From: a virus
Taxonomy: Duplodnaviria; Heunggongvirae; Uroviricota; Caudoviricetes
Length of the DNA stretch: 15,267 nt
Reading direction: 5' to 3' (one strand)
Virus record (IMG/VR): IMGVR_UViG_648276656_000008
In this document: piece by piece, positions 11,105 to 14,859 of the stretch
Layout of the letters: each line of letters begins with the position of its first letter
Numbering within the stretch: position 1 is the stretch's first letter
Translations under genes and position numbers: made by a program
Notes under the pieces: generated by a model
What the model was told of the DNA's origin: nothing
The model's database searches: none
What the model saw: the letters and a program-made list of their open reading frames with translations, nothing else

Positions 11105-11413
11105 TTTTTACATTACGTCAACAGAGTGTCACAACGTTTCTATATATGGTATGCCGACCGTAATTTTCGAATCATCATGACTAATAGGCAGGTCACCTAT
11201 GCCAGCAATGACCTGCTCATCTTGAAATTAGCAGAAATCTTGTAGCTATGATGTAGCTCAAAATAGTTTTTCATTCTTTTACCTGATGTCTGTTCCTGGC
11301 TGAAAACAGACTGTATTATTTAATTACGCACCACTGACACTTGTTTATTGAAGTAGTGAGTACAAAGCCACATATTTATCAGTGTATGTATACGTCAAAA
11401 ACAGGAGATTGTT

Positions 11414-11503
11414 GTGCTGGTTCTGAAGTGTGCGTTAGCAATAGTGGCTGTGGTGGCAATTTATTGCCTTGTTGTTGTTCTTATGGAGCGACTTTCTGAT
11501 TGA
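11414..11503 (+). CDS. Putative small hydrophobic peptide (29 codons, GTG start)
   Basis: AGGAG at 11403-11407, 6 nt before GTG 11414. Product (M)LVLKCALAIVAVVAIYCLVVVLMERLSD is one predicted transmembrane helix with a charged tail. Not in the ORF track. Confidence 0.35.
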   Translation: MLVLKCALAIVAVVAIYCLVVVLMERLSD

Positions 11504-11644
11504 TTACATACTGGCTAAAAAAAGCGTTTGCCTGGTTTATCTTTGTCCGGCAAGGTGCGCTCATTAATCTGAAGTAAATTTATTTCTTAAGTATTCAGAT
11601 TACTTCTTATGGTCGAAGTCTCCTGGCAATGTAGAACCAAAATA

Positions 11645-11715: not shown

Positions 11716-12054
11716 CTATTTTTTGGTGCTATAGACTTTTTCGCCTGAGAAGTCTGGAGCGACCCAAAAGTTAATATTAAACTGAGCATCATCGCTTAGT
11801 TCAACACGGTGCCAGTATTGTGGTGGGCTTGTTGCAAAAGAGCCAGCATTAATAACTACTTTTATCTCTGGTTCAGTAGTATTCTCATCAGCAAAACCAT
11901 AATATGTTACAGTGCCTTCCATTACGCACAACTGCCCAAAAACACCTGCTGCTGTATTATGATGTGTTAATAATGCTGAAGGTACGTTCTCTTTTGTGAA
12001 GAACGGAGTTGAGCGTTTGATTACCCAATCTTTAGGAATTCTCTTGTGTGTCAT
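11716..12054 (-). CDS. DUF1971-family protein (YeaR/TehB-N-terminal-like)
   Basis: 112-aa product MTHKRIPKDWVIKRSTPFFTKE...YYGFADE...FNINFWVAP resembles E. coli YeaR as I recall it. GGAGGTG lies 5 nt upstream of ATG 12054. Confidence 0.65.
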   Translation of the reverse strand: MTHKRIPKDWVIKRSTPFFTKENVPSALLTHHNTAAGVFGQLCVMEGTVTYYGFADENTTEPEIKVVINAGSFATSPPQYWHRVELSDDAQFNINFWVAPDFSGEKVYSTKK

Positions 12055-12705
12055 AACCACCTCCTATAAAACATGCATTATGAATGCTCCTTTTGAGGAG
12101 TTATGTCAAGCTGTTATGAAACACATAATTGATATGTTGATTAGAGGAGTAGATAGAATAAATATGGTTGTTTTTGGTGTAACTACTTGTTTTTCTTTTG
12201 GTTTATGCATTCTGTGTGTTAGGAATAAGTTATTAAAGTTTAATCAAGAAATCTCGATGCATTCCACATAGATTACTGTTACTGAACCTTATTGTGTGCA
12301 TTAGTTGTGTTCTGAAATTTCAGCTTAATTATTTATGATATATTTTTTAACGATAAATGTTTTCCCAGGTGAAAGACAGTTGGGAATAAGATAAGTAATA
12401 TATCATTAATCCTGATTATTCCCAGGTACCTTTACTGTGCATATAAATAAATCATATATGCATCAAATAGTGTAAAGGCATCCTTTTAGATATGTCTTAT
12501 CAAATGTTAATGACTTGAGTGGGAAACATGATTCCAGCAACTTATCATGTGGCTACTTTATAAAAATAATGCCCATATAAAACAACAAGCGAAAAGGATT
12601 ACGGATAAAAAAGGAGCGAGATGTGCAAACTTGTTATTTTCCATGTTTAACCACCTTAAATAATTGATGATGACGGGATGATTGCATCTGTAATGCTTTT
12701 ATTGA

Positions 12706-12740
12706 AATGTTATGATAAAAAAGAACTTTTTCATAACATT
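12706..12740. repeat. 35-bp near-perfect palindrome in ORF-poor AT-rich DNA
   Basis: Arms AATGTTATGA (12706-12715) and TCATAACATT (12731-12740) are perfect reverse complements; the 15-nt centre is itself partly symmetric. Confidence 0.6.
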
Positions 12741-12924
12741 AAAATGTAATTTAGCTAATCGTTTTTAATAATAAGTGTCGTATTTCTATCCTTGTACCAG
12801 CTATTTGATATGTAGTGTTTGTTCATGCTATGTGGGGCTTTACACCATAGCCAGTTTATTTATACTTTATTCGTCAGCCTGAACAACTGGCATCTGCTGC
12901 ACTGCGCCATAGAGAGATTGAGAA

Positions 12925-13524
12925 ATGGCGCATATACAACTGGTCAAACAAACTTCTTCTGGTTTACTTCTCCCGGCGACGCCGGAGAGTTGTGATTTTC
13001 TGCATCAAATTAAAATAGGCGAGTGGATACACGCTGATTTTAAGCGTGTGCGTAACTACGCATTCCACAAGCGTTTTTTCAAACTCCTGCAACTGGGATT
13101 CGATTACTGGACTCCGGTCGGTGGGGCGATCACGCCTCGCGAACGAGAACTGCTGTCTGGTTTCGTTGATTACCTGTGCGAATCAGTTGGTCGGGAACAC
13201 ACGCCAGCCCTGAGTGATGCCGCAGAGCAATATCTGAATACAGTTGCGACACGCAGAACCCGGGATGCGGCATTGCTAAAGTCGTTTGAGGCTTTTCGCG
13301 AGTGGGTAACCATTCAGGCTGGATTTTACACCGAACATTTTTATCCGGACGGTAGCCATGGGCGTCGGGCGAAATCCATCGCTTTTGCGAATATGGACGA
13401 AACCGAGTTTCAGCAGGTTTATAAATCTGTTCTGAATGTGCTGTGGAACTGGATTCTGTTCCGTAAATTTTCCTCTCTGGAACAAGTCGAAAATGTGGCC
13501 GCGCAGCTGCTGGAGTTTGCGTAA
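12925..13524 (+). CDS. DUF1367-like lambdoid nin-region protein (199 aa)
   Basis: Full track ORF MAHIQLVKQTSSGLLLPATPESCDFLHQIKIGEWIHADFKRV...; family assignment is from memory. Its stop overlaps the next start (TAATG). Confidence 0.6.
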   Translation: MAHIQLVKQTSSGLLLPATPESCDFLHQIKIGEWIHADFKRVRNYAFHKRFFKLLQLGFDYWTPVGGAITPRERELLSGFVDYLCESVGREHTPALSDAAEQYLNTVATRRTRDAALLKSFEAFREWVTIQAGFYTEHFYPDGSHGRRAKSIAFANMDETEFQQVYKSVLNVLWNWILFRKFSSLEQVENVAAQLLEFA

Positions 13525-14705: not shown

Positions 14706-14781
<76 letters not shown>

Positions 14782-14784
14782 TAT

Positions 14785-14859
<75 letters not shown>

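Follow-up and report, generated by a model that had tools for sequence, protein, structure and literature searches.

A conserved 28-codon gene, part of a mobile cassette, in an unannotated gap of a Rac-like Escherichia coli prophage

Organization of the locus

The stretch of DNA analysed here, IMG/VR virus record IMGVR_UViG_648276656_000008 (15 267 nucleotides; hereafter the window), corresponds to a Rac-like lambdoid prophage of Escherichia coli and is 100% identical to strain 13TMH22. Our subject is a gap that is unannotated in RefSeq, between the DUF1971 coding sequence (11716–12054, minus strand) and the DUF1367 gene (12925–13524, plus strand), and in particular a 28-codon open reading frame (ORF) on its minus strand. 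In 13TMH22 the order of genes, according to RefSeq and Pfam, is intR-xisR-...-recET-...-replication genes-QueH-DUF1971 (minus strand)-gap-DUF1367-YbcO (DUF1364)-DUF1133 (Q-like)-tRNAs-lysis. The gap (12062–12924, 863 bp) has a GC content of 0.314, compared with 0.452 for the whole window, and contains no ORF as long as 100 codons. Among the ORFs that overlap it, the longest are 11996–12271, which is antisense to DUF1971 (91 aa), and 12819–12995 (58 aa).

A preliminary description of the window had singled out this gap as about 860 bp of ORF-poor, AT-rich DNA with a 35-bp palindrome (12706–12740, with 10-bp perfect arms), a 9-bp direct repeat (12362–12370 and 12419–12427), a 9-codon ORF (ATG at 12621 after AAGGAG at 12611–12616) and a 35-codon ORF starting at ATG 12164. 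All of these are present as described. It had also proposed regulatory signals for the two flanking genes, and here it was partly correct: the gap contains a conserved promoter of the DUF1367 operon and a plausible promoter of the DUF1971 gene, but the main content, the 28-codon gene on the minus strand, had been missed. The gap consists of three adjacent sections: an AT-rich spacer (12062–12556), a mobile cassette (approximately 12557–12777) and the promoter and leader of the downstream operon (12839–12924). The cassette and its elements are listed below; types A–D are the sequence types defined in the next section.

12557–12777, minus strand: mobile small-gene cassette (ORF, leader and two or three hairpins), the stretch common to type D and types B and C
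12558–12644, minus strand: 28-codon ORF MENNKFAHLAPFLSVILFACCFIWALFL, with the stop codon TAA at 12560–12558
12651–12657, minus strand: Shine–Dalgarno sequence AAGGTGG, 6 nt ahead of the ATG
12638–12664, plus strand: candidate antisense promoter, TTTCCA (12638–12643), a 15-nt spacer and AATAAT (12659–12664)
12684–12703, plus strand: t1, in type A a weak hairpin GCAT-CTGTA-ATGC followed by TTTTATT
12706–12740, minus strand: palindrome or leader hairpin, with an 8-bp core stem AUGUUAUG/CAUAACAU and a type-specific inner stem
12741–12759, no strand assigned: the most conserved non-coding block, TAAAAT-TAATTT...TAA.C, with 80–93% identity between types A and B and flanks at 20–55%
12760–12789, plus strand: t2, a terminator-like hairpin CGTTT[TTAATAAT]AAGTG (12760–12777) with a T-rich tail at the right edge of the cassette

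The 28-codon gene

Comparisons were based on a locus sample anchored on DUF1367, comprising 80 loci from IMG/VR and 39 loci from other species. In total 125 loci were considered, 64 of which hold the complete module as 35 distinct sequences, and a degenerate DNA pattern of the ORF core retrieved at least 120 additional IMG/VR loci. Four sequence types were distinguished: A (the window), B (E. coli W and others), C, and D (locus L236, with a second copy, L251, from a metagenome).

The 28-codon ORF is a protein-coding gene under purifying selection, as its frame stays open across diverged copies, synonymous changes are in excess and a Shine–Dalgarno sequence precedes it. The ORF is intact in all 64 of the DUF1367-anchored loci, with nine protein alleles, and in 119 of 120 loci matched by the DNA pattern, with 16 peptide variants, one of which is a truncated copy. 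The ratio of non-synonymous to synonymous substitution rates (dN/dS; Nei–Gojobori method, NG86) is 0.06–0.30 for most pairs of sequence types, Fisher tests of synonymous versus non-synonymous change give p values from 0.02 down to 1e-5, and variable sites are distributed over codon positions 1, 2 and 3 in the numbers 4, 7 and 15. Each of the five remaining frames of this stretch has stops in at least one type. No indels are found in the ORF, and several occur in the adjoining leader. The Shine–Dalgarno sequence is retained in the four types, as AAGGTGAG in type B, AAAGTGAG in type C and AAGGTAG in type D, 6–7 nt before the ATG. About 100 nt of leader lie ahead of the ORF. The predicted peptide has a short polar N-terminus (MENNK) and a single hydrophobic span (grand average of hydropathy, GRAVY, of 2.4–2.5 for residues 9–28) and ends in ...WALFL; it is very probable that the ORF is a real gene for a small membrane protein.

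Other readings of this stretch were rejected. A lipoprotein is not supported since the LFAC motif is not conserved, being FVLC in type B. The 9-codon ORF at 12621 does not hold up as a gene: it is antisense to the 28-codon gene, its length changes in type B and the AAGGAG ahead of it is the complement of Ala-Pro-Phe codons. Likewise, a 38-aa ORF on the plus strand is antisense to the 28-codon gene and is not conserved in type B.

Just one copy was seen to be clearly disrupted, in L005 (strain ZH177, around 2925–2935): a clean internal deletion extending from codons near the stop to the Shine–Dalgarno sequence has taken out the greater part of the 28-aa ORF, and the remainder of the module is still present.

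The cassette and its contexts

Identity between types A and B is arranged in blocks, with 80–100% over 12557–12660, 40–55% over 12660–12725, 80–93% over 12730–12775, 20–60% over 12775–12830 and 93–100% from 12835 to the start of DUF1367. In types A and B the cassette is located upstream of DUF1367. In type C it precedes an operon for a 92-aa protein and a DUF968-like protein, with homology ending at CTGAACAACTGGCAYCTGCTGC, and the type D copies are surrounded by AT-rich DNA, with tail-fibre genes and a tRNA fragment adjacent or with trkG nearby. DUF1367 is missing downstream in about 40% of the pattern hits. When type D was compared with E. coli genomes by megablast, only L236 643–870 (228 bp) aligned; this stretch corresponds to window positions 12557–12777 and reaches from the outer base of the t2 hairpin to just past the stop codon. 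From this restricted alignment we conclude that a unit of ∼220 bp, made up of the ORF with its leader and the conserved block, moves as a whole. The DUF1367 promoter is a piece separate from the cassette.

The left neighbours of the module vary and include hok, the iteAS anti-phage pair, a DUF262/AAA-ATPase pair, an Sll1717-type ATPase and DUF1971, while the stretch directly upstream of DUF1367 remains constant. The features of phage morons that are seen here are presence or absence among related phages, swapping of context and an AT-rich composition; a promoter of its own is predicted, as described below.

The type C operon (L129, L134 and others) encodes a 92-aa protein (MAHDTKLHNSDD...) and a protein of ∼284 aa, whose resemblance to YdfU/DUF968 was judged by eye and from map position only. 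Two loci carry insertions: in the IMG/VR locus L080 about 1.3 kb lies between the cassette and the DUF1367 promoter, and NZ_CM142773.1 (strain GPEC1446) has an IS1A element inside the interval.

Distribution and absence from reference collections

The ORF region is present in 1175 of 5426 complete E. coli genomes (∼22%; blastn), with a median of one copy per genome, and no annotated feature lies under it among the matches listed. The full 863 bp was found in 463 of these genomes. The right 370 bp of the gap occurs in many more, at ∼76% identity, and among the matches listed it contains no annotated gene apart from one IS1 insertion. Prophages DLP12 and Qin of strain K-12 are without the cassette, and no relative was found when DUF1367 loci from Salmonella, Citrobacter, Klebsiella and further genera were searched.

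The peptide family is absent from every protein and RNA family library searched and was previously unannotated. Searches of Pfam, NCBIfam, PHROGs and PADLOC with the peptide alleles gave no match (for Pfam and NCBIfam at E values of up to 1–10), and Rfam, in both gathering and E-value modes, gave no match in the gap of the window or in the cassette of type B, C and D loci. Eleven peptide alleles were not found by exact look-up in a collection of 15 billion proteins; size alone does not explain this, because a neighbouring 29-aa ORF (see below) is present there. Three peptide strings had no match in the text of papers.

The palindrome as a leader hairpin

The arms of the palindrome, perfect over 10 bp, extend to 19 nt at 84%. 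A perfect stem of this length with a loop of at most 20 nt arose in 3.3% of 300 dinucleotide shuffles, and the palindrome is thus marginally non-random; the commonest alleles elsewhere have perfect arms of only 8–9 bp. The preliminary description had considered the palindrome as a possible protein-binding site. Its conservation among related prophages is borne out, but an RNA leader hairpin fits better than a protein operator. When the leaders are folded as minus-strand RNA (RNAalifold), the core stem retains 8/8 standard pairs in 39 of 39 distinct leaders. Of these pairs, one occurs as GU in 28 leaders and as GC in 11; a second is UA in 38 leaders and UG in the remaining one, and L251 contributes a third wobble variant. 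In the plus-strand version the wobble variants become A·C or C·A mismatches, with A·C present in 29 of the 39. The inner arms (AAAAAG/CTTTTT in type A, ATCTG/CAGAT in type B, and AAAGTTTG.../...CTTTG) are unrelated in sequence between types A, B and D, yet always self-complementary. A palindromic operator for a DNA-binding protein was rejected, as the spacer changes completely but stays complementary and the variants in the arms are wobble-compatible on one strand. Since the inner part diverges while remaining self-complementary and the variants are G·U pairs on minus-strand RNA, the palindrome appears to be a conserved hairpin in the leader of the peptide mRNA. Our confidence in the strand is moderate, because the argument depends on three events.

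Candidate promoters and an antisense RNA

The block at 12741–12759 is probably the core promoter sequence of the minus-strand mRNA. Two candidates were considered. The first, read from the sequence and present in neither scan's list, has a −10 element TACATT at 12748–12743 and a −35 element TTATTA at 12771–12766. The second has a −10 element TATTAT at 12773–12768, which scores moderately in types B and C and for which the −35 element would lie outside the cassette. Promoter scans are noisy here, as AT-rich DNA yields many weak matches.

On the plus strand, the TTTCCA of the candidate antisense promoter overlaps the start codon of the ORF. Scans identified the equivalent site as TTTCCA-16-TATGAT in type B (L002 3097–3124) and TTTCCA-16-AATAAT in type D (L236 785–758), each matching at 9/12 positions; the site was also scanned with a position weight matrix (PWM) across all types. 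Each type has its own hairpin and T-rich run at t1, approximately 40–60 nt beyond the start codon: AACCCT-GAT-AGGGTT GTTATTTC in type B, ATCAAT-ATTGAT followed by a T-rich run in type C and ATTCC-TGTC-GGAAT TTTTTCT in type D. None of the t1 hairpins reaches the threshold of the terminator scan.

The t2 hairpin has the consensus CGYUU[UUAAUAAU]AARYG, which is followed by a T-rich run in types A–C. It was called as a terminator in type B (L002 3219–3236; five pairs, three of them GC, with the tail TTGTTTTTAT); the type A copy of the window, with two G·U pairs, was not called by the scan. Over 19 distinct sequences, 98.9% of the cells are paired on the plus strand, and two of the five pairs have changed on both sides (GC/GU/AU and CG/UG/UA). 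The wobbles of type A pair only on the plus strand and are mismatches on the minus strand. The promoter-like site, together with the t1 and t2 hairpins and their T-runs, suggests an RNA, made from the plus strand, that would be antisense to the leader or to the ORF, in a layout like that of cis-encoded type I antitoxins. The unannotated small RNA raised in the preliminary description is hence plausible, on the plus strand, given the hairpin with compensatory changes and its T-rich tail.

Proposed function and alternative explanations

Taken together, the observations are probably best explained by a three-section gap containing a mobile membrane-peptide cassette that forms a type I-toxin-like module. 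In the mechanism that we propose, the mRNA of the peptide would start within the conserved block at 12741–12775, and a cis-antisense RNA would be transcribed from the plus strand, with its promoter over the start codon and its end at the hairpin and T-run of 12760–12789. Such an RNA might keep translation of the peptide low, as in type I toxin–antitoxin pairs, and the peptide could insert into and disturb the inner membrane. This disturbance could in turn lead to prophage stabilization or abortive infection, as with the hok/sok loci that often adjoin the cassette. A type I toxin and antisense mechanism as such is put forward tentatively, on the basis of sequence comparison. It is possible, although less likely than not, that the cassette represents an unrecognized family of type I toxin–antitoxin modules, in which a 28-aa membrane toxin and a cis-antisense RNA, in a unit of ∼220 bp, move between the hotspots of Escherichia and Shigella lambdoid prophages.

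The features listed for type I toxins are a size below ∼70 aa, a predicted transmembrane segment, a long leader and a polar or charged C-terminal tail (PMC2887945). By these measures the peptide, with 28 aa and one hydrophobic span, agrees in size and membrane character and also has a long leader (PMC2887945). It lacks the polar or charged C-terminal tail of the same list (PMC2887945) and has one Trp and one Phe among its last five residues, and this is one of several points that count against a toxin–antitoxin module. The arguments from wobble pairs as to strand depend on two or three events per hairpin, and the folding energies of the proposed RNAs are unremarkable (z scores of −0.03 to −2.7). 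In a strict consensus scan of the window neither the mRNA promoter nor the antisense promoter passes, and transcription from the first mRNA promoter candidate (−10 TACATT/TAAATT) would start inside the hairpin. The covariation in t2 is within its shuffle control (97/500), the T-run of t2 is absent in type D and L018 breaks one t2 pair on the plus strand; for these three reasons we regard the t2 covariation as suggestive only. No conserved terminator follows the ORF. Finally, carriers of the cassette were seen in Escherichia and Shigella only, and a hidden Markov model (HMM) of the peptide found no relative among all small ORFs in the 39 DUF1367 loci of other species.

In an alternative explanation, the same gene would encode a harmless small inner-membrane moron protein that is made by the lysogen without antisense control and modulates a host membrane protein or excludes superinfecting phages. 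The evidence for coding and mobility applies equally to such a protein, the peptide lacks a polar C-terminal tail, and the number of copies is as a rule one per genome (median of one). The AT-rich composition, the orientation against the early operon as in morons and the position at the margin of a hotspot for cargo and defence are also as expected. A leader of ∼100 nt with structure, and a hairpin on the opposite strand with compensatory changes and a T-run, would in contrast be unexpected for a simple moron, and the frequent adjacency of hok/sok also counts against this explanation, which we consider possible but less likely than the first.

The hairpins can alternatively be read on the plus strand as terminators (t1, the palindrome and t2) that act in the manner of lambda tR2 and are followed by a re-initiating promoter, the ORF being incidental. 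Their location exactly between the replication and cargo genes and the first nin-like gene would agree with this, as would the occurrence of plus-strand hairpins with T-rich tails in every type and a strong promoter directly after them. Nevertheless, we judge it improbable because dN/dS is far below 1 and the minus-strand frame is the only open one, and because in type D the cassette, without the promoter, has tail-fibre genes or trkG as neighbours and is remote from any Q gene; the A·C mismatches of the plus-strand palindrome in 29 of the 39 distinct leaders also speak against it. Least probable is that the entire gap consists of decaying AT-rich filler coated by H-NS, in which palindromes and repeats arose by chance. 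The GC content of 31%, the direct repeat at chance level, the left 495 bp with indels and drifting ORFs, and the hok/sok remnant just upstream are what such filler would show, and it is a fair description of 12100–12556. It is contradicted by 12557–12924, where the ORF is under selection, conserved blocks stand beside flanks of 40–55% identity and the cassette has moved intact.

If the type I reading is correct, a role in prophage retention or abortive infection is possible. More generally, since the cassette lies at the boundary of a hotspot with hok/sok and anti-phage systems, it may play a part in the stability of the prophage, in defence against phages or in persistence. Carriers of the peptide gene include clinical isolates and Shigella. 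Annotation systematically overlooks small membrane peptides and type I toxins, and ORF-poor, AT-rich gaps in prophages can conceal selected genes below the length limits of gene callers. The compact and well delimited cassette is easily testable.

Comparison with known systems

The cassette is most likely to be a new member of the class of small membrane toxins or morons. It has no sequence or covariance-model match to Hok, Ldr, Ibs, ShoB, TisB, DinQ or ZorO, or to the Sok, Sib, Rdl, OhsC, IstR and OrzO RNAs. Like Ibs/Sib and Ldr/Rdl of E. coli, it is compact, often missed by annotation and encodes a very short hydrophobic peptide (Ibs has 19 aa) with its own ribosome-binding site; the cis-encoded antisense antitoxin of ∼100–140 nt in these systems, with its own promoter and intrinsic terminator, has only a proposed counterpart here. 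Unlike them, it is not tandemly repeated but prophage-borne and mobile, its antisense RNA is a predicted one and there is no sequence similarity (NCBIfam, Pfam and Rfam). The toxins of ShoB/OhsC, ZorO/OrzO, TisB/IstR-1 and DinQ/AgrB, with 26–29 aa, one membrane helix and structured 5′ leaders of at least 100 nt, are similar in form, and ShoB has a comparable hydrophobic end (...LLFL versus ...ALFL in the cassette peptide). Their antitoxins are divergent and partly complementary, whereas the candidate in the cassette would be fully antisense. Homology to these toxins is lacking, and neither an SOS signal nor another known control signal was identified at the cassette.

The hok/sok loci (hokD, hokW-sokW) share the hotspot with the cassette, often as its immediate left neighbour, and comprise, as proposed for the cassette, a prophage membrane toxin and an antisense RNA against the leader; hokW-sokW affects the release of phage Sp5 (PMC8621323). 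Hok differs in its size of ∼50 aa, its periplasmic tail and its mok/fbi architecture, and the cassette is oriented in the opposite direction and has no Hok_Gef or sok match. With phage morons such as lambda bor and lom, the cassette has in common that it is an AT-rich insert in a phage operon, is present in otherwise different phages and is likely to be expressed in the lysogen; it is far smaller (∼220 bp), lacks a conserved terminator after the gene and has additional conserved RNA hairpins. The lambda tR2/nin terminators occupy the same map position before the nin/Q genes and also consist of hairpins and T-runs on the early-transcript strand. They have no sequence relation to the elements described here, which are also found away from Q genes and overlap a selected coding frame.

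Promoter and leader of the DUF1367 operon

12839–12924, plus strand: promoter TTTACA-16-TATACT (12839–12866) and leader of ∼50 nt, ahead of the DUF1367-YbcO-DUF1133(Q) operon

The element TTTACA-16-TATACT is a near-consensus sigma-70 sequence (10/12 matches) and is likely to be the promoter of the DUF1367-YbcO-Q operon. Promoter and leader are 93–100% conserved between types A and B and almost invariant in types A–C, and have been replaced in O157:H7 and type D. Type C shares the promoter up to CTGAACAACTGGCAYCTGCTGC and has a different operon downstream; the promoter module is therefore common to unrelated nin-like operons. A constitutive promoter for a Q operon should be dangerous in a lysogen, and it is presumably repressed or followed by termination; no operator was identified there.

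The left spacer

12052–12065, minus strand: start of the DUF1971 gene, ATG at 12054–12052 with the Shine–Dalgarno sequence AGGAGGTGG at 12065–12057 (from the RefSeq annotation of the identical locus and the sequence)
12080–12109, minus strand: candidate DUF1971 promoter, −35 TTGACA at 12109–12104, an 18-nt spacer and −10 ATTCAT at 12085–12080 (predicted from the PWM scan)
12100–12556, no strand assigned: AT-rich spacer that accompanies the type A cassette, possibly decayed DNA
12362–12370 and 12419–12427, no strand assigned: direct repeats TTCCCAGGT, which flank a 57-bp indel polymorphism

The coding sequence at 11716–12054 matches Pfam DUF1971 with an E value of 2.7e-26. The TTGACA of its candidate promoter is kept in variants that bear DUF1971 and lost in FLI21, which is without DUF1971; in FLI21 the spacer stays with the type A cassette beside a different left-hand gene. 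The left 495 bp of the gap occurs in 467 of 5426 E. coli genomes and is always unannotated.

None of six spacer ORFs that were tested is both intact and in possession of a synonymous excess. The 35-codon ORF starting at ATG 12164, put forward in the preliminary description as a short ORF with a Shine–Dalgarno sequence, is no exception: it ends after 14, 27, 32 or 35 codons depending on the strain and its changes are mostly non-synonymous. Its 51- and 63-aa extensions have a variable C-terminus and again mostly non-synonymous changes, and searches of Pfam, NCBIfam, PHROGs and PADLOC gave no match for the 35/51-aa ORF. All 22 distinct variants retain an intact 22-codon ORF on the minus strand at 12233–12301 (MHTIRFSNSNLCGMHRDFLIKL); it has no Shine–Dalgarno sequence, single changes are 37 synonymous versus 41 non-synonymous and it is probably due to chance.

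The direct repeat is a junction of a deletion or insertion and not a motif. A 9-bp repeat within 100 nt occurs in 52% of the shuffles, which is chance level, and strain 1506 has one copy of the repeat, without the second copy and the 48 bp between them. In the band of 80–90% identity (311 of 467 records) the matches are 57 bp shorter throughout, among the matches listed. The 57-bp indel segment holds an inverted repeat at 12372–12433 (TGGGAATAA ... TTATTCCCA), which uses the second copy of the direct repeat, so that the hairpin is restricted to the long allele. Of the elements of the gap, the 28-codon ORF and the leader hairpin are kept in related prophages, and neither mini-ORF is conserved.

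No similarity of the left spacer to hok/sok was found; only 11347–11515, outside the gap, matches the region upstream of sok.

Neighbourhood of the cassette

The segment at 11347–11515 is 80% identical to DNA upstream of sok/hok in E. coli W. In the window there is no Rfam sok match and no hok ORF at this locus, which has the appearance of a hok/sok locus from which the toxin part has disappeared; in EBJ003, a related prophage, the equivalent place is still occupied by a Hok/Gef gene. In loci of types B and C, Rfam places sok (112 bits) directly beside the cassette.

A second small hydrophobic ORF of 29 aa (VLVLKCALAIVAVVAIYCLVVVLMERLSD) is located at 11415–11504 on the plus strand (L002 2453–2542), with a GTG start after AGGAG. 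It is not annotated in RefSeq and is conserved in E. coli W, with about eight synonymous versus four conservative changes. In E. coli W it lies ∼45 nt upstream of sok/hok, and it has a polar C-terminal tail as in type I toxins. Pfam and NCBIfam contain no match to it, and one allele is recorded at NCBI as a 'hypothetical protein' (GCZ25347.1) on 146 contigs.

Between the replication genes and the nin-like operon lies a hotspot for cargo (L002, L003, L004 and L005). Its contents include hok, iteA/iteS (annotated as anti-phage), DUF262 with an AAA ATPase, an Sll1717-family P-loop ATPase and methyltransferases with an ATP-binding protein, and in the window QueH and DUF1971. Further to the right, at 14706–14856 on the plus strand, two tRNA genes (72 and 66 bits in Rfam; tRNA-Thr and tRNA-Gly in RefSeq) are situated just downstream of the Q-like gene; lambdoid late-promoter regions are the usual site for tRNAs.

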